This document shows, in pieces, positions 3,633 through 47,976 of a stretch of DNA of 64,000 nt; position 1 is the first letter of the stretch; each line of letters starts with the position of its first letter. The notes beneath the pieces are model-generated. The model saw nothing but the letters and a program-made list of their open reading frames with translations, did not search any database and was not told the origin of the DNA. A program made the translations under genes and the position numbers. The stretch comes from Euprymna scolopes (lineage: Eukaryota): assembly GCA_053919585.1 (NCBI GenBank), contig CM132788.1. One strand, 5' to 3'.

Positions 3633-5659
3633 CTGATTGTTACTTTAAAGACGTTACTGCTACTACTTACAGGGACGAATCTGTCCGTGATGCATTTATC
3701 CGTGGTCTCTGGTCCTCAGTAATACGTGCTAGACTACTTGAAACTGATACGCTAACTCTCAAAGAGGCTACTCAATGTGCTAGGGCTTCAGAACAAGCCC
3801 CCTTTCGTGCTGAATCATACGCTTATCCGATTGGAGCAGGCGCTACTACTACTACTTCTATTAGAACTAACAATGTGTTTACTGATCCTGCCGATGAGGC
3901 CACTATTACTAAAATTTCTGATTCTACTGGTTCTCGTATGAAGTGTGACTCTGCAATTGTCTGCTGCCTTTCCTGCTCATGGCAAGTGTTATAACTGTGG
4001 AGGGAAGCCGCCACTTTAAGGATGATCGCCGTCATTTTCCTGTCCGCGATAAGGTATGTCGAAACTGTGGTAAACTCGCTCATTTCTCCAAATTTTGCCG
4101 TTCTACTATGCCGACACTTTTACTGCTATTATGGTAGCCCATGCTAAAGGTGGTGATAGGTTCCCTCCCATTACTAAAATTGTTGAATTAAAAGGAAAAA
4201 ATTAACTGCCCTCATAGACACCGGCAGTTCTGATAACTTTATCAGTGCTCGTATTGTAAAAACAATTAAGCTGTCTACTTCAAAACGTAATTCCGTAATT
4301 TCCATGGCATCATCCGCCGTTTCCCTCAAACTATCGGAATATTGCATGGAGAACATTTCCTTCATTGGTTGCGAATATAAAGAAATTGACTTTACAGTGC
4401 TTCCTGATTCCTGTATGGATATTCTACTCGGAGTGCCTTTTTTAAAACTACATCAGGGTATCACTATTTCTTTTGGTGGACCTTAGGATATTCTAAAAAT
4501 CTGCGCCCTAACCAAGATCAGCTGTGCCTCTGTGAAATTGTTTCGAAACTTAACCCCTGATTGCAAACCTATTGCTACTAAATCCTGAAATTACCGTGCG
4601 GAGGATGCTCGATTCATTGAAAAGAAAATTCTACAACTGCTTGAGGATAATGTAATTGAAACAAGTTATTCATCATGGTGTGCTCAGATTGTTGTGACTT
4701 CGTCGCCTTATAAAATGAAACGATTATTGATTTCTCCCAAACTATTAACCGTTTCACCTTAACTTGATTCATACTTTTTGTTCGGATTGAGGATCTCGTG
4801 AACCAAATAGCCCAATATCGTATATTTAGTACAACTGACTTATCCAAAGCGTACTAGCAGATTGAAATCTGTCTCGAAGATCGGCCCTTCACGGCCTTTC
4901 AAGCTGGAAATCGTTTGTACCAATTCAAACGAATACCCATGGGTGTCACTAATGGGGTTTCTGTTTTTCAACGTTTTATAAATTCTTTCATTTCTGACAA
5001 CAAATTATCTGGAACTTTTTCATATATAGATAATATTATTTGTGGTAAAACTCAGGAGGCACGTCATGTTCATTTGGAATGTTTTTTAAAGGCTGCCTCG
5101 AAATAAACCAAGAAAAATCAACGGTTTCACTTCATTTCATCAATTTGCTTGGGTACCAAATTTGTAACGGGACTATACAACCAGACCCTGAGCGTTTGAA
5201 ACCTCTTTTACAAATGCCTCCTCCTTTCAATTCAGATTCGTTAAAGAGGTGTCTTGGAATGTTTTCGTACTACGCGGAATGGGGACCTTCACACATAATT
5301 TATCCACTGAAAATAAACAATTTCCCATGCCTCCTATAGTTACCAATTCCTTTGAAAAACTTAAGAAGGACGTTGCGGAAACGTCTGTAAAAAAAATTGA
5401 TGATGAATTTGAAGAGGAAGAATCAAACGGTTAGACAAGTGCACATACCACGCTTGCTTCAATTTTTATACTCCATAGTAAAAAATAACCAGAAACATGG
5501 ATTGTTAGCGTAGAGTAAAAAAACCCACGAGATATTCTCTTTTATTTACATTGGAATAAAAAAAAAAGTAAAAAGGAAGATAATCCCTAGAGAATTTTCT
5601 AAGAACAAGAGCAGACAACTCTTTTAGACTGTTAGACATTGATATTGCTGACAGTCTAA

Positions 5660-6243
5660 ATTTCCAGTTCTTTAAGACCTAACAGTTCCCCGAACTTCAC
5701 AAACTGTGTGCTCACAAGTTTTTTTGTTAGTATGTCTTCTACCATGTCTTTACTCTGACAGTACTCCAGTTTAACTGTTTTCTTTTCCATCATAGTGGAA
5801 TTTAATGTCAACATGTTTGGCCCTTCCATTATGCTGTGGATTCTTTGCCATACATATTGTTGACTGATTATCCTCGTAGATAAGTGTTGGTGTAACTGAG
5901 GTTTTTAATAAAGCACCTTGAAGGCGCTGCATCCAAACAGCCTCTTGTGCCGCACTAGCTATCAATAGCTTTTCGTCCACTGGGCAATTCCGTAAGATCC
6001 CATTACATATATTAGTATGTAAGGAGGAAATTTCACTTTCCATTGCTTTCATCCATTCATTTTTCTGAAGACTGGACAGTGCTTCTCTCATCGTCAATGG
6101 GTCATTTAAACTATGAGCTATGTAAACCCATTCACCATATCTATCTGGAGCTTTCTTTATTCTTCGTGATCTTTGAGGTACTGTTTCCTGTGTGTGTTTC
6201 ACTAGGTCCTTCCACCTCCTGCAAGTTGTCGTCGTCGTCATCG

Positions 6244-6283
<40 letters not shown>

Positions 6284-7453
6284 AGTTGCCTTGATATTCA
6301 ATTTCTACTGGTGATGGGTTTGCTACTTCCTTTTTCTCCTGTTCAGCTATTGAACCTGTTTCATTGAATATGACATCTCTACTATGGAATACTCTAGATT
6401 TTCTGGTATCATAGAGTCTGTACCCCTTTAAGCCAATACCATAGCCAAGAAATATGCTTTTCTTTGCTTTGGAATCCATTTAAAATCTTTTATCCTTTGG
6501 TACGTGGACAAAGGCATTACATCCAAAAATGCATAAATGTTTCACATTAGGTTTGTGACTCTTCAATACTTTATATGGCGCCATACCCTGTACAGCAGTT
6601 GTTGAGCTCCGGTTTCGAATATATAAAACCTTTGCCCAAAATACTTTAGGCAGCTTCGAATCTGATAACATTGCTCGCACTGTTTCCACTAAAGTTCGAT
6701 TCAATTTCGGCTACTCCATTTTGCTCTGGAGTTTTGGGAACAGTATATTCATGTCGAATACCCTCCCTTTTCAAATAATCTTCAAATTCTCTTGAAGTGT
6801 ATTCTCCACCATTGTCAATGCGTAGGATTTTTATATTATGCCCAGCTAATTTCTCCACCATGGCTTTCCATTCCAGGAACATTTTAAAGGCATCTCTCTT
6901 GTGCTTGAGCACATATATCCAAACAAATCTTGATTTATCATCAATAAATGTTATGAAATATTCAACGCCACCAAACGATTTTGCCTCTATCCTCCCACAA
7001 ACATCGCGATGCACGATTCCTAGGAGTTGAGTGACTCGCTTTCCACCAGATTTTAGAAATGAGGAACGATGGTGGTTCACAAAAGTTTTTATCTTTGGTT
7101 ACATCATAGTCAAGGCCAGTTACGAGCTGGTCCTTTACTAGTTTTTGTAAACTATTTTCTCCAAGGTGGCCAAAACGTTTATGCCAAATTTCCTCTTTTG
7201 TGATACTACCTAAGCAGGAGTTCGCTGTATGAGTTGCTTCATTTACGTCACTGCAGTTCAAATAAAAGATGTCCCCAATGTTTGAACCTGTAGCCACTAT
7301 TTTTTGTCTGTTATCCAGTAGTTGATATCCTAAGTTATCAAAAATACATGTTTTTTTTTCAGATTTAGTGGCTCTAGAAACACTTAATAAATTGTAAGAC
7401 AATTTAGGAACATATAAAGTATCATATAACCTGCATTTTTTGGTATTTCCCAT
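5660..7453 (-). pseudogene. pol: Copia pol remnants: GAG-pre-integrase, integrase, RNase H
   Basis: IWHKRFGHL, VHRDVCG, IDDKSRF, IDNGGEY, TPEQNGVAE, FLGYGIGLKGYRLYD, IYEDNQSTI..RAKHVDIKFH. Multiple frameshifts. Confidence 0.9.
6226..6283. repeat. (TCA/TCG)n trinucleotide microsatellite (poly-Asp in the Copia IN-RT linker frame)
   Basis: gtcgtcgtcgtcatcgtcatcatc... run; ORF 6141-6479 shows a long poly-D tract. Confidence 0.9.
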
Positions 7454-8459
7454 CTGGTACGTTCACATTTAGTTCTATTGTTCCTGTTCCTAGTGCCTCA
7501 ACAGAGAATCCATCACCAAGGGTAATTTCCTCTGTTACATCCAATTTTCTGAAATTTATGAATTTCTCAACATCATGACACATGTGACATGTTGCTCCGG
7601 AGTCCACAATCCAGTTGCTCCTTTTATCCTCGGATAATAACGCATGATGTGTGAGGAGTCCAACAATGCAATCACTAGAGTCACTTGATTCACCCTGTGT
7701 TTTCTTCGTGAAAAAAACTTTCTTTTTCCGAGGGTTCGACTTGAAATTGCCGTTATTTTTAAGTGAGCGACAGTCACGTTTAATGTGCCCGTTCTTCCCG
7801 CAGTGATAACACTTTGACACCCTTTTGTTAACGCGGTGTTTAGACGCCATGGCTTTCAATTCGGTATCATTTAGTTCCCTCTCTTTAATCTTGGTTTCCT
7901 CATGCAGCAATCGTTCAGTGACTAACACCCATTTAGGAACGTCCTGGCTTGCTTTGAGTGCTGTTGCCAACATATTATAAGACTCTGGGAGAGTAGCCAG
8001 AAAATGAACAACTCTATCCTCCTTATCAATTGAATCGCCAATGACTGCTAATTCACCGAATATTTCCATCGTAGTTTTGATGTGTTCATGAACGTAATCG
8101 CCGTCTTTTAATCTAAGAGAATATAATTTTCTCCTCAATGCTAACTTGTTCGCCCACGTCTTCTTTTGAAACTGATTAGCCAATTTCTTCCACACTAATG
8201 CGGGATGGTCAGGGTCTCCAAATAAATATAAGAATGAAGTTTCCACCGATAGCACAATCGTCGCTAATGCACGATCCCTTCTTGATAAATATTTTACGTG
8301 CGATGCAGAATCTGTTCGTTTATCGGGAACGATTTCCGTTTCATTAACAATGTTCCATAAACCATCCTTAATTAAAGCCATTTTACATTGAACCTTCCAA
8401 GTATTATAATTTGTACCATTTAGTGGCACCAAGTTACTAAGTTTTGTTTCCATCGCCAT
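7422..8459 (-). CDS. gag: Copia Gag-protease ORF (345 aa; frameshifted from the rest of pol)
   Basis: LNGTNYNTWK, CYHCGKNGHIKRDC zinc knuckle, WIVDSGATCHM protease motif. Confidence 0.9.
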   Translation of the reverse strand: MAMETKLSNLVPLNGTNYNTWKVQCKMALIKDGLWNIVNETEIVPDKRTDSASHVKYLSRRDRALATIVLSVETSFLYLFGDPDHPALVWKKLANQFQKKTWANKLALRRKLYSLRLKDGDYVHEHIKTTMEIFGELAVIGDSIDKEDRVVHFLATLPESYNMLATALKASQDVPKWVLVTERLLHEETKIKERELNDTELKAMASKHRVNKRVSKCYHCGKNGHIKRDCRSLKNNGNFKSNPRKKKVFFTKKTQGESSDSSDCIVGLLTHHALLSEDKRSNWIVDSGATCHMCHDVEKFINFRKLDVTEEITLGDGFSVEALGTGTIELNVNVPDGKYQKMQVI

Positions 8460-8589
8460 TGTACATTTAAAAGCAATACAAAACTTTCACTACAACAAAA
8501 TTCAAGATGGCCGTACAAGAAAAAAAAAAAATACCGTCACACGTGTTCTATTATCTTCAAGACGTTGACTGGGCCATAACCTATGAAGA

Positions 8590-8845
8590 TCTAATCGAAA
8601 AAAAACCTGGACTCGATTCTCAGCGACACTCTCCACTCTAACCAGGTTCCACCCGGTTCTCGAGAACTCAACGGCTCGACTCACCCAAACATCTTAACTC
8701 CCGGCCTTATATTATCTCATTTATGCAAATTAATGCACAATCGAACCTGATGATTTGTTGCCTTCTCCTCTCCCATCGCTCGGGTTTCGAGTTCGCACAT
8801 GCAGCCCACCTCCGTGACTGCAGTCGTACTACAATTTCCACTACA
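8590..8845 (-). mobile_element. Solo LTR inserted 6 bp inside the end of the Copia 5' LTR
   Basis: TSD GAAGA (8585-8589, 8846-8850). Termini TCTAAT (mutated TG) and CTACA. Absent from the other Copia LTR. TATA-like ATATAAGG on the minus strand. Confidence 0.8.
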
Positions 8846-10825
8846 GAAGAGGAAGAATCAAACGGTTAGACAAGTGTACATATCTCGCTTGCTTCAATCT
8901 TTATACTCTATAGTAAAAAATAACCAGAAACATAGATTGTTAGCATAGAGTAAAAAAAAATACGCACGAGACGTTCTCTTTTACATTGGAATTAAAACAA
9001 AAAGTACAAAGGGAGATAATCACTACAGAATTTTTTAAGAACAAGAGCAGATAACTCTTTTAGACTGTTAGACATTGATATTTTTAACAGAATTACCATT
9101 TACTATTGAAACCGATGCCCCAGAAAAAGCTGTCGGAGGCACTCTCCTACAGGCTGAGAGACCTGTAGCATTCTTTTCTAGATCGCTAAACCCATCTGAA
9201 ACACGACTTCACATAGTCGAGAAAGAGGCTTATGCCATAGTCGAGTGCATCCGAAAATGGAGGAATCTCCTTGCTGGGAAGCAGAAGCACTTACTATTGT
9301 AACAGACCAGCAAGCCGTATCTTTTATGTTTAAACCTGCTAACCGAGGAAAAATTAAAACTTATACGGTGGAAAATGGAACTTTTCCCGTTGTGATACGA
9401 CATAAAAAAAAAACCGCACCGGAAGTGAAAACATTGTTGCCGATGCATTATCGAGAGTATGTGGTGCTGCTGCTTCTTCCTTGGAGAAAGTAAAGTCACT
9501 ACACAATTCATTAATACATCCTGGAACAAAATATGCCATATTCAATTGATGAAGTCCGGCGTGTGACATCTGAATGTATGACTTGTGCCAAAATAAAACC
9601 TCAATTCTTCAATTCTACTAATAATACACTGCTCCCTTTCAGCGCCTCTCCATAGACTACAAAGTACCTGTCCTGGTATCTTCGACGGGATATCATTATA
9701 TATTTACTGTCATCGATGAATACAGTCTATTTCCTTTTGCTTTCCCTTGTCGCGATTGTTCTTCGCAAACCACAATCCAGTGCCTGACAAATATTTTCTC
9801 CATATTCCCCTCATTTATCCATTCCGATCGAGGAACTTGGTTTTGTCGGAAGAATTCAAAAATTTTTTGACGCGACTTGGAATTGGATCCAGCAACACTA
9901 CTGCATATAAACCCACGAGGAAACCGTCAATGCAAGCGTTACAACGGCATTATTTGGAACACCTAGACGATTACCAGTTAGCGCTTGGCAGGATGTTCTA
10001 CAGGATGTTTTAAATGTTATTCGCTCCCTGCTGTGCACTATTACAAATGCAACTCCTCACGAACGCATGTTCAACTTTGAAAGGCGCTCTTCTACTGGTA
10101 CTGCTTTACCTGTTTGGCTCTGTGACCCTGGGGAGGTACTATTAAAACGGTTTGATAACAGGAACAAATATGACCCGATTGTCGAGGTAGTGGAACTCCA
10201 CGAAGCTAACCCTACATATGCAAGAATACGACATAATGATGGCTGGGAAGATTCAGTAGCGCTGAGACATCTAGCTCGCTTTCCACGCTCTGATAGACCT
10301 CAAAATCCTGCTAAAAGTATTCAACCCGACATTGGAAATGCAGACCCGATCCAGTTGACCGGAACAAGCCCTGTTAGTACTACACTGAATACAGAAGATG
10401 AATTTGACTAAAATAGTCAGAACCCTGGGAACCAACTTTCCCAGAGGATCACCGGTCCTTCGAATAGCGAACTACCTCCACGCCGATCTAATAGAATTCG
10501 CAGACCAGTCCAGCGACTGGATTTATAAAACAAAAAACTATTTACAATCACTTTTACAAGTGGAGGAGATTGTTATATTTTCATTTAAATTATTTTGTTC
10601 TTACTATTTAAAAAAAATGCAAATTCAGTTTCTGTCCACGTAATTTTGAACGCGTTCCTTTGTCTTTAAGAGACTGAGTTCTTTCCCTCTTGCTTTAGTA
10701 GCTGTGAATTTTATTCAATAAAGCCTTGGAAAGAGGTTTGTTTTACACCTTCATTCATTTACAACACTACAAATAGTTAACTGAAAATAATCATCGTATA
10801 AGAAAACCGAAACGACTAATAAGGA

Positions 10826-15723: not shown

Positions 15724-16549
15724 CACTTTCTTCATTTGCATATGTGCTAAGAAGGCTATTGCTTCTAATATTTTTGCTAATCAGCTATTCTATGGCTGCT
15801 GCTGATTTTCTCATATGCGCCCATACACGCTATGTGTTTTTTTTCCAGTGTAATATAAATCTTGGAGTGGTTAAACTCGTATTTCCCTTATGGGTCCTTC
15901 AAATCCTAATATCGCCCGTGTTATACAAACACTCGGGTGTTTAAAATTTGGTTTCTTTTGAAGTTCTTGAAATCCAACGTCGCCACTGTTATGCGACAAT
16001 GGGATATTTAAACGTGTTTTCTGCATAAGTTTTTTCGGGTTCTTGCAACACTGGGATGTTTAAACTTGTGTTCCCTGCATTTTTAAATCTTTTCGTCGTC
16101 ACTGTTATGATCCTGTTAAAGAGGTCACAAGGAAAACGCAACATGGGAATAGAGTAACAAAATATATTTACAGGAATCTATAAAAGTGAGGGGTGTTTAT
16201 CCAATGTGGTGTAAATGAAGAAAAAAGAAACAAGAACGACCGACCGCGTTTTTGTGTGGCTTACCTCGTGTTCATAATGAAGAAGAAAGAAACAAAAATG
16301 GCTGCCCTGTTTGACCACGAGGTATGCAAATGAGATGCTCCTGATTGGAGATAAAAGAGGAGTGATTTTGGGGAAGGAAGGCATTCTGGAGTTAGATTGC
16401 GAGCAGAGAAGTTGTATTTGTAGAAGAGAAAAGTCGGATTCGGGGAGAGAAAAGCTAAAGTTGCAGAAGTTCGTTTTGGAGTGGAGAGAAGACGCGTCAA
16501 GTGGTAACCAGAAGGTGAAAGTTCGGACAGCAGTGTCACGCAATCGACA

Positions 16550-16561
16550 AGCTATTTCGGC
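16550..16561 (+). promoter_or_regulatory. Primer-binding site complementary to tRNA-Phe nt 1-12
   Basis: AGCTATTTCGGC abuts the 5' LTR CA and is absent after the 3' LTR. Its reverse complement GCCGAAATAGCT is the 5' end of metazoan tRNA-Phe(GAA). Confidence 0.8.
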
Positions 16562-17274
16562 GTATCAAGCAATTAACATGGCTGAGTGGAGACTGAGCAC
16601 TCAGATGTTGAGACCCTTTACTGGGGAGGGCGACCTGATTAAGTGGCTGGAGAAATTAAAAATGGTGGCAAAGCTGCAAAAGATAGAAGATGTGGTCACC
16701 CTGCTGCCGCTATACTTAGAGGGGGAAGCCCTCACGATTTACCAGCAGATGCGAGATGAAGACAAGGAAGACCTCGCCTTAGTAGAGCAAAGGCTGAAAT
16801 TGGCCTTCGCGGAGGGCCCATTTGAAGCACTTCGCAAGCTGTCAAGTTTGAGGTGAACCGGCGAGTCCGTTGATGTCTTTGCGGCAGAGATCAGGAGACT
16901 GGCAGGGTTGGCTGGTTACGTGGGGAGGAGCCTGGAGATGACGGTAAAGCTGTACCTAGTGAACGGCTTCCCAGAGGAAATCTCTGCGAACATGCAGAGA
17001 ATCACGGGGATCCATTCTATGGAAGTGGACGATCTCTTGGTCCACGCCAGAGTCCTAGTGAAAAATGTTAAAAGCCCAATCGTGGCTGCAGCTGTGAGTG
17101 GAAATATGTGCATGAGGCCTCACTTGAATGAGAGGCAGCCGGCGAGGCGACAGGAGGGGAGACCTGCCATCAAGTGTTTCCGGTCCAGGGTCCTCATCTG
17201 ATCAAGGACTGCAAAGAGCCGAGACCGGGGATCACGTGCTACCGATGTGGACAAGTGGGGCATATTAGCCGCTA

Positions 17275-20187
17275 TTGTGTTGCTGCACGGGACCAGGGAA
17301 ACGAGTGAAGGGGAGCTATTGCGCCAGTGGTTACCCCTTCTGTGTGGAAATGGCGCATGATGGAACATTGCCTCGGTTACCGGTGGTAGTCAATGGGAAG
17401 AGAGCCATAGCCCTTGTCGACACAGGCTGCACTACAATGCTGTTAGCAAGGAATGTCGCGAGGTCATGGAGCGGAACCAGGATTATTAGGACCGTGGATG
17501 GCAGGGATGTGAAATGCCTAGGAGAGACGACAGCGGAAGTAATGGTGCAAGGGGTGCCCATTGGACTGCAAGCCCTGGTGTTGAATCATCTGGTCGGTGG
17601 TGTCGACGTGATTATAGGTATGAGTGCAATTAACCGACTGGGGGGCACTACGTTAAGAGGGGGCCAAGTGACGTTTGGACGTCTCGGCGCAGTGGGGATG
17701 GCAGGAGTGGAAGGTGATAGAACCGTCAGAACCCCAAAACCGGAGGTTTGCTGCATTGAGGACAAAGATTTCCTGGCGAAGTTTGATGGCGTGAGGTGTA
17801 CGGTGGAATGGAAATGGATTTCCGGGCCCCCAGAACTACGGAATAAGGTGGGCTGCTACGAAAACACCCTGCGAGGAGAAATAAGAAAAGGATTCGAGGA
17901 AGAAGTGGAGAGGTGGATAAAAGAAGGAATTCTGAAACCGTGGACAGGGGAAGAAAAAGATGTGTTGCCACTACTGGCGGTTGTTCAGCCTACCAAAAAC
18001 AAGATTAGGCCCGTGCTGGATTTTAGGGAATTGAACAGACACGTAGCCTGCCACACTGGAACGGGGATCGACGTATGTGAGGATGTCATGAGGAAATGGA
18101 GAAGAATGGGGCGGGCCACTAAGATTGTCGATCTGAAATCGGCATATCTGCAGATCCATGTAGATGAAAAACTCTGACAGTACCAACTGGTCCGGTACAA
18201 GGGGCGGGTGTATTGTCTGACGAGGTTAGGCTTTGGGCTGAGTTCATCCCCCAAAATTATGACTGCCGTGCTGAAGACAGTGCTGAGCAAAGACTGTACA
18301 GTGGAGGAGGCCACTAGCTCGTACATTGACGACATCCTGGTGGAGGAGGCAGAGGTGACAGCAGAAAAAGTAAGAAGCCATGTCGAGAAGTATGGGTTAA
18401 CCGCAAAACCGGCGGAGGCCCTAGATGGAGGAGCGACGCTGGGGTTGAAACTAAGGCGAGATGGAAAAGAAAGCCTTGTCTTCGAACGAGGGAATGCAAT
18501 ACCCGAAGTCGGATCTGAGCTGACGAGGCGAGAACTCTTCTCAGTCTGCGGGAGGCTGGTCGGGCACTATCCTATCGCTGGCTGGCTCGGGATAGCATGC
18601 AGCTTTATTAAACGACAAACAGGCACTGATGATTGGGAAGGCCGTGTGACGAAGGAGGTCATGAACATGCTGCAAGAAGTCATTGCGAGAGTGAGGAATG
18701 AGGACCCAGTGAAAGGGAAATGGTATGTCAGCGGCGAAGACGCAGGTGTGGTTTGGTGCGATGCCAGTAACCTGGCGTTGGGCGTCGTACTAGAGATAGG
18801 AGGTGTAAGCGTGGCTAAGAAAATCAACGACTTCTCCCATATCAACGTAGCAGAACTAGATGCCGCTATAAAAGGAATCAATCTGGCCCTGAAATGGGGA
18901 TTGAAAATAATTGAAGTCAAAACCGATTCGGCAACAGTAGCGTCGTGGATTCGGTTGGCAGTAACTGGCGATAAGAGAGTTAAGACAAGGGGTGCTGCAG
19001 AAATGCTGATCAAGCGCAGACTCGGAGCGCTCACCAACCTGATAGCGGAATTCCAGTTGAGAGTATCTGTTGTGTTGGTCCCGTCAGAAAAAAACAAGGC
19101 GGATTCGATGACACGCGTGAAGAAGGCCTGGCTGCAGGAGGGAAAGGAGATCTCCTCGGCATGCTGTGCAGGGGAAGAAGTCAAAGAGTCACACGAAATG
19201 CACCACTTTGGTCGAGAACGAATGTTATTCCTAGCCAGAGAGGTTTACCCGGAGACCACCGAGGAGGAGGTTAGGGAGGTGGTGGAGAACTGTCGAGAGT
19301 GCCAATCAATTGACCCTGGACCGTCCAGACACGAAGCAGGAGAGCTACACGTTGCGGAGGACTGGAAGCGATTGGCCATTGATGTGACAAACTATCACCA
19401 CAAATTGTATCTGTCGATGGTCGACTGTGGACCGGGAAGGTTTGCCATCTGGAGAGAGATCAGGGCAGAAGCTGCATGGGCGATCGGAGGGGTCATCGAG
19501 GAGATAGTTTTGGAGAGAGGGCCGGTTGAGGAACTCTTAATGGACAATGGCCCCGCTTTCTGATCAGAAGCCTTTAAAGGGGTGTGCGATAAGTGGGGAG
19601 TAAGGCAATTTTTCAGAGCAACGTATCGGCCGAGTGGCAACGGAACAGTGGAGAGGAATCATCGCACGATTAAAGCCGCTGCGGAAAAAAGCAACGTATC
19701 ACCCATAGAGGCGGTGTTTTGGTACAACATCTCGCCGAAGACCAAACAAGATGAGACAACTGTGCCTCATAGGGCCGTTTTCACATATAAGTGGCGGCAT
19801 TCGTGCAACAAAACAGCAGAAATTGAGAGTGAAGAAGCCACTATCAAAGTAGGTGAAGAGGTGTGGGTGAAACCCCCCAATGCACAGTGTACCACTCGTT
19901 GGAAAAGAGGGGTCGTAACAGGATTGCAGTCGAAGAACAATGTGATGGTGAATGGCGTTCCCTGGCATATCTTAGACCTGCGTCGTGTGACATTGCCGGT
20001 ATGCAGTGAGGGCAGTGAAGAAGAAGAAATCGAGGGCCACCGAGAAGCAAATGATGCTGCTCGACCTGACTTAGGCCCGCGTTGTAGTGAACCTGAAAAC
20101 TTTAACCCCCGAGAAGTTGTCCTCCAGAGGCCTCGACGTGAGAGGAGGCGGCCTGCTTGGATGGAGGATTACGAAGTATCCTATTGA
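17275..20187 (+). pseudogene. pol: pol of element C (PR-RT-RH-IN), one frame with two premature stops
   Basis: ORFs 17275-18177, 18208-19563 and 19582-20187 are in the same frame, separated by single TGA codons. Confidence 0.9.
17296..17340 (+). promoter_or_regulatory. -1 ribosomal frameshift signal at the gag/pol junction
   Basis: Slippery G GGA AAC in the gag frame (Q-G-N-E-stop), then hairpin GAAGGGG-AGCTATTG-cgc-CAGTGGTT-a-CCCCTTC. Conserved in element E (~39287-39331, minus). Confidence 0.75.
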
Positions 20188-20659
20188 TCTCGAAGATCAG
20201 GGGGGCGTGTGGTGTAAATGAAGAAAAAAAGAAACAAGAACGACCGACCGCGTTTTTGTGTGGCTTACCTCGTGTTCATAATGAAGAAGAAAGAAACAAA
20301 AATGGCTGCCCTGTTTCTTTATATGCCTACAGGGTGACCACGAGGTATACAAATGAGATGCTCCTGATTGGAGATAAAAGAGGAGTGATTTGGGGAAGGA
20401 AGGTATTCTGAAGTTAGATTGCGAGCAGAGAAGTTGTATTTGTAGAAGAGAAAAGTCGGATTCGGGGAGAGAAAAGCTAAAGTTGCAGAAGTTCGTTTTG
20501 GAGTGGAGAGAAGACGCGTCAAGTGGTAACCAGAAGGTGAAAGTTCGGACAGCAGTGTCACGCAATCGACATCCAACTGATGAATAATCTTGCGTGGCCC
20601 ACCGAATATTGACTCCCACCCCACCTTTTGTCTTTCAATATTTATTCTGCATGGATCTG

Positions 20660-22904: not shown

Positions 22905-24085
22905 AAATGCGGTTGACCGTACAACCAAATGTGGCCCAATGACGTAGCCCCTTTTAAGGGAGCTGGGGGCTGCTACATTAATAACCCCTATATCTAGCTT
23001 CTAACCTTGTGCCTGACTTTGTGATGCAGTTATAAACGTTTCATGCAGGTGTTTTTTTGGGTTTGGGAACGTTAGATCATGTCGGTTGGGTTTGAGTGAC
23101 AGGTGTTATGAAACTTTTAAAGGTCAGATTTACACGCGGATATCTGAAGTTGAAAACTAAAACATTGTGTGAAAAGCATGCTTCTCTCTCTCTCTCTCTC
23201 TCTCTCATTCTCTCACTCTTTCTTTCTCTATTTCTCTCATTGACTTCCTTTCTCTCTCTTTCAATGAAGAAAGAGAGAAATTAAATATAATTTGATTGTT
23301 GTAAAGACAGTTGAGATTTGCTCGCCGTACGCGATGGGTCGACTAAATATGTTTCCTAACTTGTTAACTGTTTAATAAATTATCTATATTTTTATAAAAT
23401 GTATCTTGTCGCTGTTTTTATACAAGTGTTCGATTTCAGCATACCATTAATGCCGACGACAGAAAGCTGCACTGAACACGCAACAAGCGACGATGGGAAG
23501 ATGCCTGCAATGACCACACATAATGCGACCCATACCAAACAGTTATAGCCGACGACGGATCGACCCGTTATCGTTGTGTTTCCAGCATGTGTCTATCGTT
23601 TAGATATTGTTGGATATCGTTCATTCCCCGTGGAGCTGGTTGCATTCCCAAGACGTTCATCAACCAAGTAACCCTTCTGGGGAGCGATAGTACTACATTG
23701 TTGCCGTTAATCCAGGATTGTTTCTCGCATGAGAAACAAGCACGACCCTATGGGAAAATCCACGGACACAAGGAAAAAAAAATCAACCACTAGACAAATA
23801 AAAATCCACGGACACAAAAACTAAAGAAAAGAAACACAAGATTAGTCAGTCAAAGTCCAGGGAAACACAACAACGAAGAACTCAACTCAAAAACAGCCAC
23901 TTCAACCCAGCATCTACAGAAAAAAAGACACCTGAACTCTTAAGAAAAACTAAGGTAGGTGACTATTTTCTCTGCTCTTTTTGTTACTCTGCAAATTTTT
24001 TGGTTTTAATAATTTGTAAAAATTATTTTGTGGATAGAGCTTTTTGTTTAAACGTCGGCTATTTAAAAATATACATTTAGACAAA

Positions 24086-26140
24086 ATGGCTAACACAAAC
24101 CAAGCCCCATTTAACAGAATCCTCACAGGTGGATCGAAGATCCCAATCTTTACTGGAAAACCATCCGACTTTGGTCCATGGCTAGCAGCTCTGAAAAAGA
24201 AAGAGCGGATCTACCAGCTTACAGACCCCGAGCTAGTAAACCTAGCGTATGATTTTACGGACGGACTAGTATCGGAAATGATCGGAGAATTTCTCGATGA
24301 TCATCCGAACTGCACCAGTAAGGATCTGCTCGATCAAATAGCAGCCCAGTACGGCGAGTTTACAAATGCTGCCGACGCTGCTCGGGCTTTAATAAGAATA
24401 AAGCAAGATCGAGGTGAGGTACTCGCCGATTTAGCAAGTAGGATGAATAAAATTGCTAAGTTAGCCTATAGGGACGCAGAGATGAGGGAAGGTCCAGCTG
24501 TGCAAGTGCACTTAGCTGAGTTCTTCATAGATGCGTTAAATAACTCCTTTATCAAGGAGGATGTGGTCAGATCGAATCCGACGACATTATCGGAGGCCTT
24601 GTCTGCTGCTAGACAAAGCGAAATGCTTTATGAACGACTCCAAAGTGGCCACAAGAAGGAGCAGGCTTTCTTAAATAATAGCTTTAACAGGTATCAGGGA
24701 CCAAAGGGGGCTCCAATTAGATTTAGGGTACCCAAATCCGAACCTAACAGTAGCTGTAACGCTGTAAGATATAAGTTTTGTGGGTGTGCTTCAGCAAGAC
24801 TGCAGCGAGGGCGTTCCAGCTATAATAGGCTAGAAAGAGACTGGCAATGCGCACCTGAAGAAAGATTAAATAACTTCACTTCAGGAAAAAGCAAGGTCAA
24901 GTTACACTCGAAACCCACTCACCACCGACCGCCACAGAGGTCAAACACACGGACATGCAACCATGACAAACCCTCAAAGAAAGGAGTAACCCTGGGAAGA
25001 ATAAACACCAGAGGTCATGGATGTCTGGAAAGCCGTGAGAGCAGACCTAAACGGGCCCACCAAAAGAATAAATCGGTCAAGAAAACTCGGGAAAATAAAG
25101 AGACCCAAAGAAATAAAATCCACAACCAGAGCTCCGGAATGGAGTGTATAGTTAAAATAAGAGGTAGACCGATAGAGGCATTGATCGACACTGGATCGGA
25201 AGTCTCGCTCCTCAAAACATCAGTTTTTGAAGAGTTAAAAACGCATAAAGGAGAGTTAAGGGATTCTAACCTAACAGTTACTCTCGCAAACGGGCAAAGA
25301 ATGCCACTGAAAAGCATGGTCCATTTGCCTATTAAAATTAAGAAGGTGCAAACTTTATCTAGGTTTTATATCACCCCAGACTTAGATCGGGAGTTGATAT
25401 TAGGTGCAGATTGGTTAGAAAGGAACCACGCCCAAATAACCTTCCACCCTAACCAACTAACGGTTAAAGGGATGAACATACCACTTGTTAATAATACCAG
25501 TGATAGAGTCAAGTTATCGCCATGCACTGCATCGACGAGCACTGTTAGAGTAATTTCTAAAAAACAAAACAAGAATCCACCCCGTCAACATCGATCTCCA
25601 GTCCGAAAAAGGAAACCTGTATCAGAGGCAATTAAAGTATGCCCCGAGCTATCCACACCACAGGTACCTGTGAATCGTAAAAGCCTCAGAAAAACTGCCG
25701 GCTTTTCACAAGACTTTTCCTTTCGGAAAAAGAATGAGTTTTTAATGACTAATTCCTTCACACAAAAATCCAAGAACTCTCAACCGCGTAGAAAATATCT
25801 GGATAACCCACAACTTACAGAATTCCCGAATTCACCCCTGTCCAACATTATTAGCAGAAGCCGACTACAAAACAAAAAACTTTTGAAAACGGCCAAGAAA
25901 TTTAAAAATAAAAAGAAAGAAAATATATATACAGAGGAGCAAAGAGAAATTGTCACCAACACACACACCCACGCGCGTGCGCGCATAAAGAAAAATGTTG
26001 ACAAATTCAAAACAAGCAAAGCTTCACAAAAAGTCAATGAAAAATCAAATGACTATAAAACGAAACAGCGAACGACTAACGTTTTTCGAAAAAGAAGATA
26101 CAACAAATTGATCAAATATTATATTAAAAAAAAAAAATGA
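24086..26140 (+). CDS. Gag-aspartic protease polyprotein with basic C-terminal tail, copy 1
   Basis: Open 684-codon frame from ATG 24086. Capsid-like IPIFTGKPSDFGPWL..IKQDRGE..FFIDAL; protease ALIDTGSEVSLL..ILGADWL. Confidence 0.85.
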   Translation: MANTNQAPFNRILTGGSKIPIFTGKPSDFGPWLAALKKKERIYQLTDPELVNLAYDFTDGLVSEMIGEFLDDHPNCTSKDLLDQIAAQYGEFTNAADAARALIRIKQDRGEVLADLASRMNKIAKLAYRDAEMREGPAVQVHLAEFFIDALNNSFIKEDVVRSNPTTLSEALSAARQSEMLYERLQSGHKKEQAFLNNSFNRYQGPKGAPIRFRVPKSEPNSSCNAVRYKFCGCASARLQRGRSSYNRLERDWQCAPEERLNNFTSGKSKVKLHSKPTHHRPPQRSNTRTCNHDKPSKKGVTLGRINTRGHGCLESRESRPKRAHQKNKSVKKTRENKETQRNKIHNQSSGMECIVKIRGRPIEALIDTGSEVSLLKTSVFEELKTHKGELRDSNLTVTLANGQRMPLKSMVHLPIKIKKVQTLSRFYITPDLDRELILGADWLERNHAQITFHPNQLTVKGMNIPLVNNTSDRVKLSPCTASTSTVRVISKKQNKNPPRQHRSPVRKRKPVSEAIKVCPELSTPQVPVNRKSLRKTAGFSQDFSFRKKNEFLMTNSFTQKSKNSQPRRKYLDNPQLTEFPNSPLSNIISRSRLQNKKLLKTAKKFKNKKKENIYTEEQREIVTNTHTHARARIKKNVDKFKTSKASQKVNEKSNDYKTKQRTTNVFRKRRYNKLIKYYIKKKK

Positions 26141-27570
26141 TCAAAAGATTGAATGCTTCGGGAGAAAAATGTCCATAAAATTGAATGAGAAAAAAATTTA
26201 ACAGGGGAAGATAAAGGGTTTTCAAAATAAATAAAATAATATTTTATTAAAAATAAAAAATGATCTAAAGAATTAATGCTTAAAAAAAAGGTGATTAATA
26301 CTTGAGAATAACTGAGAGAAGAGAAAAAGATTTTAAAATAATCATTGTGCCAATGACCCGATGATATGACATTTGCCAGTCAGAGCAAAGGTCACAAAAA
26401 GGGAGGGACGAGATGTGGCACAATGACGTAGCCCCTTTTAAGGGAGCTGGGGGCTGCTACATTAATAACCCCTATATCTAGCTTCTAACCTTGTGCCTGA
26501 CTTTGTGATGCAGTTATAAACGTTTCATGCAGGTGTTTTTTGGGTTTGGGAACGTTAGATCATGTCGGTTGGGTTTGAGTGACAGGTGTTATGAAACTTT
26601 TAAAGGTCAGATTTACACGCGGATATCTGAAGTTGAAAACTAAAACATTGTGTGAAAAGCATGCTTCTCTCTCTCTCTCTCTCTCTCTCTCATTCTCTCA
26701 CTCTTTCTTTCTCTATTTCTCTCATTGACTTCCTTTCTCTCTCTTTCAATGAAGAAAGAGAGAAATTAAATATAATTTGATTGTTGTAAAGACAGTTGAG
26801 ATTTGCTCGCCGTACGCGATGGGTCGACTAAATATGTTTCCTAACTTGTTAACTGTTTAATAAATTATCTATATTTTTATAAAATGTATCTTGTCGCTGT
26901 TTTTATACAAGTGTTCGATTTCAGCATACCATTAATGCCGACGACAGAAAGCTGCACTGAACACGCAACAAGCGACGATGGGAAGATGCCTGCAATGACC
27001 ACACATAATGCGACCCATACCAAACAGTTATAGCCGACGACGGATCGACCCGTTATCGTTGTGTTTCCAGCATGTGTCTATCGTTTAGATATTGTTGGAT
27101 ATCGTTCATTCCCCGTGGAGCTGGTTGCATTCCCAAGACGTTCATCAACCAAGTAACCCTTCTGGGGAGCGATAGTACTACATTGTTGCCGTTAATCCAG
27201 GATTGTTTCTCGCATGAGAAACAAGCACGACCCTATGGGAAAATCCACGGACACAAGGAAAAAAAAATCAACCACTAGACAAATAAAAATCCACGGACAC
27301 AAAAACTAAAGAAAAGAAACACAAGATTAGTCAGTCAAAGTCCAGGGAAACACAACAACGAAGAACTCAACTCAAAAACAGCCACTTCAACCCAGCATCT
27401 ACAGAAAAAAAGACACCTGAACTCTTAAGAAAAACTAAGGTAGGTGACTATTTTCTCTGCTCTTTTTGTTACTCTGCAAATTTTTTGGTTTTAATAATTT
27501 GTAAAAATTATTTTGTGGATAGAGCTTTTTGTTTAAACGTCGGCTATTTAAAAATATACATTTAGACAAA

Positions 27571-29625
27571 ATGGCTAACACAAACCAAGCCCCATTTAAC
27601 AGAATCCTCACAGGTGGATCGAAGATCCCAATCTTTACTGGAAAACCATCCGACTTTGGTCCATGGCTAGCAGCTCTGAAAAAGAAAGAGCGGATCTACC
27701 AGCTTACAGACCCCGAGCTAGTAAACCTAGCGTATGATTTTACGGACGGACTAGTATCGGAAATGATCGGAGAATTTCTCGATGATCATCCGAACTGCAC
27801 CAGTAAGGATCTGCTCGATCAAATAGCAGCCCAGTACGGCGAGTTTACAAATGCTGCCGACGCTGCTCGGGCTTTAATAAGAATAAAGCAAGATCGAGGT
27901 GAGGTACTCGCCGATTTAGCAAGTAGGATGAATAAAATTGCTAAGTTAGCCTATAGGGACGCAGAGATGAGGGAAGGTCCAGCTGTGCAAGTGCACTTAG
28001 CTGAGTTCTTCATAGATGCGTTAAATAACTCCTTTATCAAGGAGGATGTGGTCAGATCGAATCCGACGACATTATCGGAGGCCTTGTCTGCTGCTAGACA
28101 AAGCGAAATGCTTTATGAACGACTCCAAAGTGGCCACAAGAAGGAGCAGGCTTTCTTAAATAATAGCTTTAACAGGTATCAGGGACCAAAGGGGGCTCCA
28201 ATTAGATTTAGGGTACCCAAATCCGAACCTAACAGTAGCTGTAACGCTGTAAGATATAAGTTTTGTGGGTGTGCTTCAGCAAGACTGCAGCGAGGGCGTT
28301 CCAGCTATAATAGGCTAGAAAGAGACTGGCAATGCGCACCTGAAGAAAGATTAAATAACTTCACTTCAGGAAAAAGCAAGGTCAAGTTACACTCGAAACC
28401 CACTCACCACCGACCGCCACAGAGGTCAAACACACGGACATGCAACCATGACAAACCCTCAAAGAAAGGAGTAACCCTGGGAAGAATAAACACCAGAGGT
28501 CATGGATGTCTGGAAAGCCGTGAGAGCAGACCTAAACGGGCCCACCAAAAGAATAAATCGGTCAAGAAAACTCGGGAAAATAAAGAGACCCAAAGAAATA
28601 AAATCCACAACCAGAGCTCCGGAATGGAGTGTATAGTTAAAATAAGAGGTAGACCGATAGAGGCATTGATCGACACTGGATCGGAAGTCTCGCTCCTCAA
28701 AACATCAGTTTTTGAAGAGTTAAAAACGCATAAAGGAGAGTTAAGGGATTCTAACCTAACAGTTACTCTCGCAAACGGGCAAAGAATGCCACTGAAAAGC
28801 ATGGTCCATTTGCCTATTAAAATTAAGAAGGTGCAAACTTTATCTAGGTTTTATATCACCCCAGACTTAGATCGGGAGTTGATATTAGGTGCAGATTGGT
28901 TAGAAAGGAACCACGCCCAAATAACCTTCCACCCTAACCAACTAACGGTTAAAGGGATGAACATACCACTTGTTAATAATACCAGTGATAGAGTCAAGTT
29001 ATCGCCATGCACTGCATCGACGAGCACTGTTAGAGTAATTTCTAAAAAACAAAACAAGAATCCACCCCGTCAACATCGATCTCCAGTCCGAAAAAGGAAA
29101 CCTGTATCAGAGGCAATTAAAGTATGCCCCGAGCTATCCACACCACAGGTACCTGTGAATCGTAAAAGCCTCAGAAAAACTGCCGGCTTTTCACAAGACT
29201 TTTCCTTTCGGAAAAAGAATGAGTTTTTAATGACTAATTCCTTCACACAAAAATCCAAGAACTCTCAACCGCGTAGAAAATATCTGGATAACCCACAACT
29301 TACAGAATTCCCGAATTCACCCCTGTCCAACATTATTAGCAGAAGCCGACTACAAAACAAAAAACTTTTGAAAACGGCCAAGAAATTTAAAAATAAAAAG
29401 AAAGAAAATATATATACAGAGGAGCAAAGAGAAATTGTCACCAACACACACACCCACGCGCGTGCGCGCATAAAGAAAAATGTTGACAAATTCAAAACAA
29501 GCAAAGCTTCACAAAAAGTCAATGAAAAATCAAATGACTATAAAACGAAACAGCGAACGACTAACGTTTTTCGAAAAAGAAGATACAACAAATTGATCAA
29601 ATATTATATTAAAAAAAAAAAATGA
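27571..29625 (+). CDS. Gag-aspartic protease polyprotein, copy 2 (identical protein)
   Basis: Translation identical to 24086-26140 in the ORF track. Confidence 0.85.
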   Translation: MANTNQAPFNRILTGGSKIPIFTGKPSDFGPWLAALKKKERIYQLTDPELVNLAYDFTDGLVSEMIGEFLDDHPNCTSKDLLDQIAAQYGEFTNAADAARALIRIKQDRGEVLADLASRMNKIAKLAYRDAEMREGPAVQVHLAEFFIDALNNSFIKEDVVRSNPTTLSEALSAARQSEMLYERLQSGHKKEQAFLNNSFNRYQGPKGAPIRFRVPKSEPNSSCNAVRYKFCGCASARLQRGRSSYNRLERDWQCAPEERLNNFTSGKSKVKLHSKPTHHRPPQRSNTRTCNHDKPSKKGVTLGRINTRGHGCLESRESRPKRAHQKNKSVKKTRENKETQRNKIHNQSSGMECIVKIRGRPIEALIDTGSEVSLLKTSVFEELKTHKGELRDSNLTVTLANGQRMPLKSMVHLPIKIKKVQTLSRFYITPDLDRELILGADWLERNHAQITFHPNQLTVKGMNIPLVNNTSDRVKLSPCTASTSTVRVISKKQNKNPPRQHRSPVRKRKPVSEAIKVCPELSTPQVPVNRKSLRKTAGFSQDFSFRKKNEFLMTNSFTQKSKNSQPRRKYLDNPQLTEFPNSPLSNIISRSRLQNKKLLKTAKKFKNKKKENIYTEEQREIVTNTHTHARARIKKNVDKFKTSKASQKVNEKSNDYKTKQRTTNVFRKRRYNKLIKYYIKKKK

Positions 29626-31007
29626 TCAAAAGATTGAATGCTTCGGGAGAAAAATGTCCATAAAATTGAATGAGAAAAAAATTTAACAGGGGAAGATAAA
29701 GGGTTTTCAAAATAAATAAAATAATATTTTATTAAAAATAAAAAATGATCTAAAGAATTAATGCTTAAAAAAAAGGTGATTAATACTTGAGAATAACTGA
29801 GAGAAGAGAAAAAGATTTTAAAATAATCATTGTGCCAATGACCCGATGATATGACATTTGCCAGTCAGAGCAAAGGTCACAAAAAGGGAGGGACGAGATG
29901 TGGCACAATGACGTAGCCCCTTTTAAGGGAGCTGGGGGCTGCTACATTAATAACCCCTATATCTAGCTTCTAACCTTGTGCCTGACTTTGTGATGCAGTT
30001 ATAAACGTTTCATGCAGGTGTTTTTTGGGTTTGGGAACGTTAGATCATGTCGGTTGGGTTTGAGTGACAGGTGTTATGAAACTTTTAAAGGTCAGATTTA
30101 CACGCGGATATCTGAAGTTGAAAACTAAAACATTGTGTGAAAAGCATGCTTCTCTCTCTCTCTCTCTCTCTCATTCTCTCACTCTTTCTTTCTCTATTTC
30201 TCTCATTGACTTCCTTTCTCTCTCTTTCAATGAAGAAAGAGAGAAATTAAATATAATTTGATTGTTGTAAAGACAGTTGAGATTTGCTCGCCGTACGCGA
30301 TGGGTCGACTAAATATGTTTCCTAACTTGTTAACTGTTTAATAAATTATCTATATTTTTATAAAATGTATCTTGTCGCTGTTTTTATACAAGTGTTCGAT
30401 TTCAGCATACCATTAATGCCGACGACAGAAAGCTGCACTGAACACGCAACAAGCGACGATGGGAAGATGCCTGCAATGACCACACATAATGCGACCCGTA
30501 CCAAACAGTTATAGCCGACGACGGATCGACCCGTTCTCGTTGTGTTTCCAGCATGTGTCTATCGTTTAGATATTGTTGGATATCGTTCATTCCCCGTGGA
30601 GCTGGTTGCATTCCCAAGACGTTCATCAACCAAGTAACCCTTCTGGGGAGCGATAGTACTACATAATATTAGACACAATACAAAGGAAGGAAAGAGCAAA
30701 GACAAAGAAGAATGACAAAACACAGAGATGTCAGTTTAAAAAGGTAGGAACCGTCTCTTTTATTGACAACCAAAAATGTGAGATCGTTAGGCCAAAAAAA
30801 AAAAAAAAAAAAAAAAAATAAAGATAGATCACAAGATCATGAACTGGATGTCAGAGGACACTGTTGAGCTGGACGTCAGTGGATTCCTAGAGGTAGGCGT
30901 CAGCGGGCTGCTGATCAAGACCTCAGTGGATACTGCAAGGGAGCGTCAGCGGGCTGCTGAGCTGGACATCAGTGGATACTGGAGGCAGAAACCGATTGTT
31001 GGTAGGC

Positions 31008-32080
31008 TCAATGGACAAAAATCAGAGGCCTGCAGTATTAATGCTGGAGTCCCTCAAGGGTCAATCCTGGGCACAACTCTCTTCCTGATCTACATCAATG
31101 ATCTCTCAAAACACATACTTAAATCATTCGTTGACATCCATGCTGATGACACGACTATCTACAGCAACACATCAAAGGCTGTAAATGACAAAGTTCTCTC
31201 TGATTCTCTTTCCTCTGATCTCGAGCACGTGGTTCAGTGGGGGAAGAGGTGGCTGGTCACTTTTAATTCATCCAAAACCAAGCTTCTATCTTTACATCAT
31301 CAACGCTCTGATCCCCATCTGGCATCAATTGAAATGGATGGCTCTCGTCTAGGAGAAGCCCCATGTTTTGACAAGCTTCTGGGTTTGTCCTTTACTCCTG
31401 ATCTTAAATGGAACACGTACATCAAGTCTGTTGCCAAGGTCGCTGGAAAGATGGTGGGATCCTTCTACCGCTCTAGAAGATATCTCACTACTGATGCAAT
31501 TCTCTATCTATATTAAAGCCAAGTACGTCCAAGGATGGAATACTGCTGCCATATCTGGGCAGGAGCTGCTAAAAACAGCCTATCCTGCCTTGACAGAGTA
31601 CAAAATAGACTTCGTGGCTTAGTGGGGGATGCCCTTTTCTCTTCCCTGCAACCTCTCTCCCACAGAAGAGACGTTGCGAGCCTATCCTTGTTTTATCGTT
31701 ATTTCCATGGCAGGTGCTCGTCTGAACTCCAATCTCTGGTCCCCCCTCGCCAATCTTTCACGAAAAACTCTCGTCTAGCTGAATCCACTGTCAAAAATTT
31801 TCCCCACTCTTTATCTGTGCCTAAATCAAAACGAAGATTCCATGAACAAAGCTTATTTCTTATAACTGCACGCCTGTGGAACTCTGTTCCGTCTGCCTGC
31901 TTCCCACCTGACTACAACCTGGATGTCTTCAAGTCCAACGTAAGCAAATTCCTAATGAACCGCCCCCTTAAGTAAACACTTCAATAACTAACGTACTGTA
32001 CTTGCAATAGCCCTTATTCCTGAGTGGCTTCCAGGCCTTGATAAGTGGTGACCACCGTGTAAAAAAAAAGCAAAAAAAAA
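31008..32080 (+). mobile_element. 5'-truncated CR1/L2-group LINE with A-rich tail
   Basis: GVPQGSILG, HADDTT, MEYCCHIWAG, HRRDVASL motifs; short 3' UTR ending GTGTAAAAAAAAAGCAAAAAAAAA. Confidence 0.9.

Positions 32081-45031: not shown

Positions 45032-45034
<3 letters not shown>

Positions 45035-45110
<76 letters not shown>
45035..45110. repeat. (TA)n microsatellite within element G
   Basis: About 38 TA units with one TG interruption. Confidence 0.95.
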
Positions 45111-47804: not shown

Positions 47805-47862
47805 CAGAACCAGAACCGGAACCAGAATCAGAACCAGAATCAGAACCGGAACCAGAACCAGA
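47805..47862. repeat. Hexamer tandem repeat (CAGAAC/CAGAAT/CGGAAC) in the pol C-terminus of G
   Basis: About 9-10 units, directly visible. Confidence 0.9.
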
Positions 47863-47976
47863 GATGATGAATGTTCCCCTTTGCAGAAGTGAACGGAATA
47901 AAAGACCAACCCCGCAATGCACTCTGTGTGATCATGAGATCAGGGGGGGGGGTGTAATATTCATCAAAGAAGCAAG

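Follow-up and report, generated by a model that had tools for sequence, protein, structure and literature searches.

How can a long terminal repeat (LTR) retrotransposon begin reverse transcription if the site beside its LTR pairs with the 5' end of a tRNA? The question is raised by element C, at 16205-20571 on the plus strand of a 64-kb stretch of the Euprymna scolopes genome (hereafter 'the window'; G000:C6:101804001-101868000 in a genome of 5.9 Gb), and by its relatives E, F, G and J in the same window, which is a nest of retroelements. Known retroelement primers are tRNA 3' ends, tRNA halves or the element's own RNA. A sequence-only reading of the window had proposed that these five elements share an atypical RNase H (RH) that cleaves tRNA-Phe annealed at the primer binding site (PBS); the element letters used here are our mapping onto the letters of that reading.

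A primer binding site complementary to a tRNA 5' end

Elements C (16550) and J (58905-58916) carry the same PBS, AGCTATTTCGGC, which follows directly on the terminal CA of the LTR and is exactly complementary to tRNA-Phe(GAA) of this genome over nucleotides (nt) 1-12. The window has no further exact match, and both of these abut an LTR end, where about 0.008 would be expected by chance. Genome-wide, the string formed by CA, the PBS and a G has 1365 exact copies, and the reversed pattern has none. We also considered 40 loci chosen by protein similarity, in which 1500 nt or more precede the reverse transcriptase (RT), some of them near-duplicates. A CA followed by AGCT[AG]N4GGC was found in 30 of them (28 of the 38 outside the window), and in none of the 40 on the opposite strand. 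At each of the 30 positive loci the LTR's CA is directly followed by the site, and no TGG, complementary to the CCA end of a tRNA, is present; the G following the PBS is not conserved.

Ten PBS variants occur in 37 rows. No variation occurs at the positions facing tRNA nt 1-3 and 9-12; the changes fall at nt 4-7, with one at nt 8. One variant (loci L073 and L074) is complementary to the beginning of tRNA-Lys(CTT), as annotated in the window's genome, and one is common to three loci of a single assembly, across two starred clades. On the element tree the variants require 15 changes (minimum 9, shuffled mean 23.5). The sequences fit a scenario in which PBS variants would track host tRNAs. The name 'tRNA-Phe-5' lineage', used in the sequence-only reading, is too narrow in view of the ten variants, one of them of the tRNA-Lys(CTT) type.

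Self-priming in the manner of Tf1 is not supported, because the LTRs hold no complement above 8/12: the best self-complementary match is 7-8/12 in C and J, and 6-8/12 in four outside elements, the other three of seven tried having given no usable LTR end. No description of a PBS directed against tRNA 5' ends was found in the literature searched, Repbase, GyDB and subscription journals being outside its scope. Two tandem arrays with tRNA-like sequence were also noted, a 219-bp array at G000:C28:101706348-101720813, whose start resembles tRNA-Phe, and a 500-bp array of tRNA-Lys/tRNA-Gly at C18:104176400-104206567.

Extent and separateness of the lineage

The elements very probably belong to a separate lineage of LTR retrotransposons. 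The sequence-only reading had suggested a distinct clade, and we reach the same view because of a gap in search scores and starred branches in the RT, RH and integrase (IN) trees. A search among proteins of 1148-3275 aa (7985 candidates) gave 57 relatives at E<=1e-20, among them proteins of Nymphon, Trichuris, Amphibalanus and Sycon; all have the Pfam domain DUF7047 and the order protease (PR)-RT-RH-IN. When the RT-RH part alone served as query (5562 candidates, word-limited search), 55 matches were obtained at E<=5e-77, and the next five, at 9e-4 to 0.2, were Gypsy proteins. At E<=1e-3 an RH-only profile matched 1758 representatives among 1.84 billion, of which 293 reach <=1e-30, and the genome itself holds over a thousand copies of the lineage. 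In the predicted model DUF7047 is the RT thumb, and the RH follows directly, with no tether domain. A sponge-type subclade (Sycon-type proteins P0047-P0059 and P0211-P0239) has the RT-RH in common with the main subclade and an integrase only about 25% alike, which hints at a module swap.

The lineage is apparently unnamed: no description of it was found in the literature searched (the sources outside that scope may list such elements as Gypsy), nor any mention of DUF7047. None of its motifs occurs in the readable supplementary files of PMC11673190, PMC8556966 and PMC6238403, a weak negative since the last two hold little sequence. A tblastn search of plasmids returned nothing, and matches in the ESM Atlas at 0.90-0.92, mostly unnamed, are leads only. 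Lineage elements also turned up on contigs of three bacterial metagenome-assembled genomes of GTDB (L254-L260), where they are likely eukaryotic contamination.

All trees were computed under LG+G4 without a mixture model, and the RH groups submitted to approximately unbiased (AU) tests were named after the tree was seen. In the RH tree (45 rows, with few references, mostly from the same genome, and only nine Gypsy rows), the lineage (100/98) lies within the clade of LTR-type RHs (99/96) and outside Gypsy+Caulimoviridae (98/89), and it leans to BEL+Copia (86/77, unstarred); the N-x-A-D spacing of its end motif is like that of the BEL and Copia rows. Nesting with Mag-type Gypsy is rejected (p=0.010), and a sister position to Gypsy (p=0.094), BEL (0.21) or Gypsy+Caulimoviridae (0.32) is not. 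The RH thus falls outside the sampled Gypsy RHs, so that a grouping with ordinary Gypsy RHs, which would have refuted the sequence-only reading, was not seen; sisterhood to Gypsy is still compatible with the data. In the RT tree (37 rows, after two without an anchor were dropped and 22 redundant or incomplete ones left out), the lineage forms a long starred branch outside Gypsy+Caulimoviridae (87/94), and the AU tests reject no placement (union with Mag p=0.23, sisterhood to Gypsy p=0.21, union with BEL p=0.32). The joining of the lineage with Copia in this tree (86/79) we put down to a meeting of long branches, and do not believe. Among the Gypsy-type INs, that of the main subclade stands on a long branch and has a Mag-like tail, and the nearest outside matches of the sponge-type IN are Gypsy and retrovirus-like proteins; for all lineage INs as one clade, p=0.085. 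Neither the RT nor the IN free tree joins the lineage with BEL. This isolated RT-RH bears on the relations among Gypsy, BEL, Copia and DIRS.

A possible DIRS ancestry of the RT-RH

One origin to be considered is an RT-RH of DIRS ancestry joined to a gag, protease, integrase and LTRs of Gypsy type. We regard it as doubtful, although plausible, and it would fit either of the nuclease models considered below. In the accessible part of the PMC11673190 supplement, three rows of DIRS RT share, as judged by eye, RPVLD..LN, D.K.AY and FGL..AP.I with the main subclade; the distance from FG to YxDD is 30 residues in both, against 26-28 in Gypsy and Caulimoviridae and 34-37 in BEL. The existence of two subclades with a common RT-RH and such dissimilar integrases also points this way. 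However, the FG-to-YxDD distance of the sponge-type subclade is 26, our RT, RH and IN trees hold no DIRS sequences, and the RH, by its N-x-A-D spacing and its unstarred leaning in the tree, looks towards BEL and Copia.

The elements themselves have an aspartyl protease and an rve integrase, whereas DIRS elements are recognised by a tyrosine recombinase and the lack of a DDE integrase and protease. The HINxxEL motif of the RH is one that we take to be DIRS-like. The G-x-x-Y spacing of the RT was discarded as a DIRS mark, as it occurs in retrovirus-like rows too. No DIRS element was found in the same genome with PF00589 (two matches, both bacterial-like), nor with DIRS motif patterns among 30 inspected of 47 matches and 1 of 4; searches of viral contigs found none either, one of them giving three caulimoviruses, which were used as references. 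Two small contigs of the assembly that match phage integrase, G000:C503 (L172) and C240 (L173), are probably bacterial; one of the two has three in-frame TGA codons, perhaps read as Trp.

Which nuclease would free the primer?

The PBS and tRNA nt 1-12 can form 12 bp, with a computed energy of -18.7 kcal/mol. We propose that the element RNA would invade the acceptor stem of the tRNA and pair with nt 1-12. Because the tRNA's own 3'-OH would then be far from the template, an internal cut would be needed, giving a primer that ends at nt 10-12. The RH, packaged together with the tRNA:PBS duplex, would cut the tRNA after about nt 12 and free the 5' fragment, while also handling the usual tasks of template removal and polypurine tract (PPT) processing. 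Cleavage by an RNase H yields a 3'-OH, as RT requires. The invariant AG beside the CA may be paired or may be a spacer.

That the primer is a 5' tRNA fragment seems to us probable. That the lineage RH makes the cut is, judging from sequence, a close call that falls slightly short of an even chance, and one that tips a little in its favour once such a primer is granted. The four catalytic positions are conserved across 47 lineage RHs (D10 in 45/47; E46, D70 and D129 each in 47/47) and intact in C and J, so that by sequence and model this is a type 1 RNase H with a D-E-D-D core, predicted to be catalytically competent. H41, I42, N43, W77, R100 and R101 are invariant in the lineage and are candidate substrate contacts, with no link to double-stranded RNA (dsRNA) in the data.

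If the proposal is true, pairing with tRNA nt 1-12 is a further priming mode, and the lineage escapes silencing by 3' tRNA fragments and is overlooked by PBS finders that expect TGG. An RH that cuts a tRNA 5' primer in trans has no counterpart in the retroelement priming described in the literature searched, and the lineage offers a simple in-vitro test of a retroelement RNase H cutting RNA:RNA duplexes in trans. The most inclusive picture, that of an unnamed superfamily-level group reaching from sponges to molluscs, arthropods and nematodes, with a DIRS-related RT-RH, a DDE integrase and an RH that cuts a 12-nt tRNA 5' primer in trans, is rather unlikely to hold in every part.

Alternatively, the same 5' tRNA fragment may come from a nuclease of the host, by over-processing of the RNase P type or through some other enzyme that leaves a 3'-OH, the RH being an ordinary LTR-type enzyme whose odd motif would reflect only the age of the lineage. 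We consider this somewhat unlikely. The accessible part of PMC5371799 names host RNase P as the source of the internal tRNA 3' end from which Ty5 primes, and a half-tRNA as the primer of copia; moreover, the lineage RH sits among LTR-type RHs (99/96) and lacks the His or Arg loop residue as they do. However, in the host-cut primers known from the same source the end lies in the anticodon arm and not at nt 12. The nt-12 register stays the same in ten PBS variants, which involve two or more tRNA species, and this agrees with a cut whose place is measured along the duplex. A further point against this alternative is that many host nucleases acting on tRNA leave 3' phosphates.

It is improbable that no cut takes place at all, an intact tRNA (or RNA from a tRNA-derived repeat) occupying the 12-nt site while priming occurs elsewhere, either at a bipartite site like that of Ty3 or from element RNA. 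The bipartite sites of Ty3 and Ty1 bind internal tRNA arms (PMC5371799, accessible part), and the genome is rich in repeats with tRNA-like starts. Such an arrangement sits poorly with the position of the site, which abuts the LTR's CA without a TGG in every one of the 30 positive loci and has on its own the geometry of a canonical PBS, and with LTR self-complements that never exceed 8/12.

To return to a cut by the lineage RH, several points weigh against it besides the precedent of Ty5. The exact PBS pattern is missing in 10 of the 40 loci, and the PBS data cover the main subclade only, while the sponge-type subclade has the same type of RH. The step from 'atypical RH' to 'primer nuclease' made in the sequence-only reading does not follow by itself, because Tf1, a Ty3/gypsy element, has an RH that cuts between bases 11 and 12 in cis (PMC7175516, accessible part), a precedent for the proposed cut; an odd RH sequence for the same reason neither implies dsRNA cutting nor is needed for it. 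The likeness in fold to archaeal-type RNase HI, whose S. tokodaii member cuts dsRNA (PMC9719913, accessible part), speaks for a cut by the lineage RH and does not carry over into ancestry. The AlphaFold2 model of the RH (pLDDT 92.8) is a compact RNase H with no basic protrusion. Its closest solved folds are archaeal-type RNases H1, namely those of Halobacterium (4e19, Z 17.1, rmsd 2.3, 123 aligned), LC11 (3u3g, Z 15.3) and S. tokodaii (3aly, Z 14.9), followed by foamy virus (Z 13.2), HIV (12.9), human (12.7), CaMV (11.8) and Ty3 (9.2, with just 87 residues aligned); there is no BEL, Copia or DIRS RH among the listed PDB matches. By TM-score, predicted caulimovirus RHs reach 0.69-0.76 versus 0.64-0.70 for the archaeal types. 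According to the accessible part of PMC4408406, archaeal-type RNases HI have a conserved active-site Arg, and LTR-type RHs are recognised by a C-terminal loop without His or Arg: the archaeal Arg was found in 0/138 motif-bearing RH representatives, and the loop position is S or T in 47/47 lineage RHs, as in LTR-type enzymes. Union of the lineage with archaeal-type RNases H (7 Planctomycetota rows, LG+G4) is rejected in an AU test (p=0.028), and because of this the fold match is not a matter of ancestry.

At the sequence level, Pfam assigns RVT_3 to 47/47 RH members, RT_RNaseH to 7/47 and Peptidase_A17 to 0/47. With hhalign we obtained probabilities of 96% for Gypsy (out of register in the middle), 95% for archaeal-type RNase H (in register) and 32% for BEL. 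Single-sequence and profile searches of the PDB with the RH gave no real significant match, de novo designs coming top and human RNase H1 and 4e19 standing at E 0.4-0.5. Capture of a cellular RNase HI of archaeal type, some members of which cut dsRNA, in place of the element's own RH would account for the top structure matches, the RVT_3 assignments and the in-register alignment, yet it is very improbable given the rejected union, the missing Arg, the LTR-type DAS start and AD.LTR end, the absence of a degenerate tether RH between thumb and RH, and structure matches that offer no BEL, Copia or DIRS RH for comparison.

Comparison with known retroelements

With Tf1/sushi the lineage has in common a short (11-12 nt) PBS against an RNA 5' end and, on the proposal made above, a primer freed by an internal cut; the partner here is a host tRNA in trans and not the element's own transcript, and the RT-RH falls outside the Gypsy clade as sampled. 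Ty5 and copia (Pseudoviridae) would resemble it in priming from an internal tRNA 3' end, but in their case that end lies in the anticodon arm of tRNAi-Met and is attributed to host RNase P, whereas the site here corresponds to nt 1-12 of tRNA-Phe and tRNA-Lys types (PMC5371799, accessible part, for Ty5 and copia); the domain order PR-RT-RH-IN of the lineage also differs from theirs.

Ty3/Gypsy elements (Metaviridae) are similar in their gag (CX2CX4HX4C)-PR-RT-RH-IN organisation, TG..CA LTRs, 5-bp target site duplication (TSD), which is within the 4-6 bp of that group, and single RH without tether, and Mag-type Gypsy elements in the SH3-like tail of their IN; Ty3 Gag-Pol is the best PDB profile match, in the IN part. 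The lineage differs from Ty3/Gypsy in its RT-RH (E>=9e-4 to Gypsy), RH motif, N-x-A-D spacing, DUF7047 thumb, size of 4.1 kb and a PBS that is not of the TGG type. BEL/Pao elements (Belpaoviridae) share the TDS..V..W/Y of the RH, the N-x-A-D..R spacing and the T[RK]R..LS thumb start, but the lineage has no Peptidase_A17 (0/47), has an hhalign probability of 32%, has a single knuckle and is much shorter. The likeness to DIRS1-like elements lies in RT motifs and spacing seen by eye; unlike them, the lineage has a DDE integrase, a protease, direct LTRs and TSDs, and no tyrosine recombinase.

Troyka (Kuafuorterviruses) sets a precedent, as an LTR superfamily of aquatic animals that had been overlooked and has the same domain order; it shows, in the accessible parts of PMC12440569 and PMC11673190, CG..CG ends, a 3-bp TSD, a CX2CX8-10HX4C knuckle and xADD. 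With TG..CA, 5-bp TSDs, CX2CX4HX4C and Y[IV]DD, the lineage differs at all four points, and membership in Kuafuorterviridae was rejected. Archaeal-type RNases HI (Halobacterium, S. tokodaii, LC11, Rv2228c), the closest solved folds, resemble the lineage RH in having neither basic protrusion nor His loop, and differ in the diagnostic Arg and in phylogeny.

Element C and its relatives in the window

The 5' LTR of element C (TG..CA, 16205-16549) is preceded by the TSD TCCAA at 16200-16204 and followed, with zero gap, by the PBS (16550-16561). Gag (16566-17268), with a CX2CX4HX4C knuckle at 17237, has a broken frame; protease (DTG at 17413) and the N-terminal part of RT (17269-18177) end at a premature stop, and the C-terminal part of RT (YIDD at 18322) continues with the thumb (18178-18738; DUF7047 at about 18523-18696). 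No tether domain separates the thumb from the RH (18739-19131; 160 bits against the lineage profile), in which D-E-D-D is intact and WCDAS, HINVAEL, TDS..V..W and NKAD..R are readable, a five-residue deletion having taken out WLR. The integrase (19180-20187), with HHCC, a DDE core and an SH3-like tail, has one internal stop. A TGATC..GATCA inverted repeat and a G-rich PPT (20185-20207) precede the 3' LTR (20208-20571) and the second TSD (TCCAA, 20572-20576), all on the plus strand; the gag-PR-RT-RH-IN reading of the whole element is thus interrupted by stops.

GATCA stands directly before the G-rich PPT in element C, at the 3' ends of J and E, and in 26 of 61 loci (0/61 on the reverse strand); in 20 of the 26, TGATC lies just upstream, which makes a small conserved inverted repeat. 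This repeat may serve as a PPT mark for the RH.

Element J (55748-59201, minus strand) has LTRs at 58917-59201 and 55748-56033 (97% identical), the TSD CAACA, the PBS at 58905-58916 and an RH (57028-57432; 192 bits) with the full motif. The LTRs with TG..CA ends, 5-bp TSDs and DDE integrase described in the sequence-only reading are all present in C and J. Its open frame for J extends over RT-RH-IN (56455-58422, 655 aa), an internal deletion near 58333 having removed the gag end and the protease; copies of the J family elsewhere have a 1014-aa PR-RT-RH-IN frame, and D-E-D-D is intact in 29/30 J-family loci. Of 30 bins along J, 27-30 are covered by RNA contigs of two studies, which, without a silent control, does not demonstrate transcription; the RNA runs in which the sequence occurs bear the label mollusc or invertebrate metagenome.

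Element E (36365-40073, minus strand; 83% to C) has no LTRs, and its 5' LTR and PBS are gone; its RH (37517-37900, minus strand; 138 bits) has N, K and N at the first three catalytic positions, three catalytic residues thus being lost. A G-to-A excess between C and E (146 vs 99) was too weak to call editing. Element F (42637-43720, plus strand) is a remnant with gag, RH and IN pieces, and its RH fragment (43182-43472, plus strand; 68 bits) lacks the first strand and has K in place of the catalytic E. Element G (43875-47975, plus strand), of a divergent subfamily (35-41% aa to J) and with a 3' LTR cut short, has a PBS with one mismatch (44228-44239, plus strand) and an RH (46433-46828, plus strand; 133 bits) that keeps D-E-D-D and contains stops. 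In a profile search of the window, the five copies C, E, F, G and J thus share the lineage RH as had been proposed, the full motif being present in J only.

Other retroelements in the window

Elements A, B and I match the Gypsy RH profile and not that of the lineage, so their assignment to Gypsy stands, while the YAQIEKE/TDH motif ascribed to them holds only in part: it reads YAQIEKE and TNH in B, YSQIEKE and TDH in I, and HIVEKE in A, where no TDH is readable. Two Gypsy elements of the same genome (L207 and L226) carry an integrase-type tail upstream of RT, a domain order that we take to be Gmr1-like.

A Copia element (5411-9090, an LTR pair, minus strand) is nested in a Gypsy element, whose RT (4729-5309) and RH (9093-9410) are split by the insertion. 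At 22929-30664 lie 3485-bp tandem units, 99.8% identical, each of which has a gag-protease frame of 700 aa but nothing that matches RT, forming an LTR-like tandem array of a non-autonomous element. A 667-bp unit is present in three tandem copies at 19-1976, and two LINE RT fragments, at 30791-31978 and 41532-42569, are 81% identical to each other.

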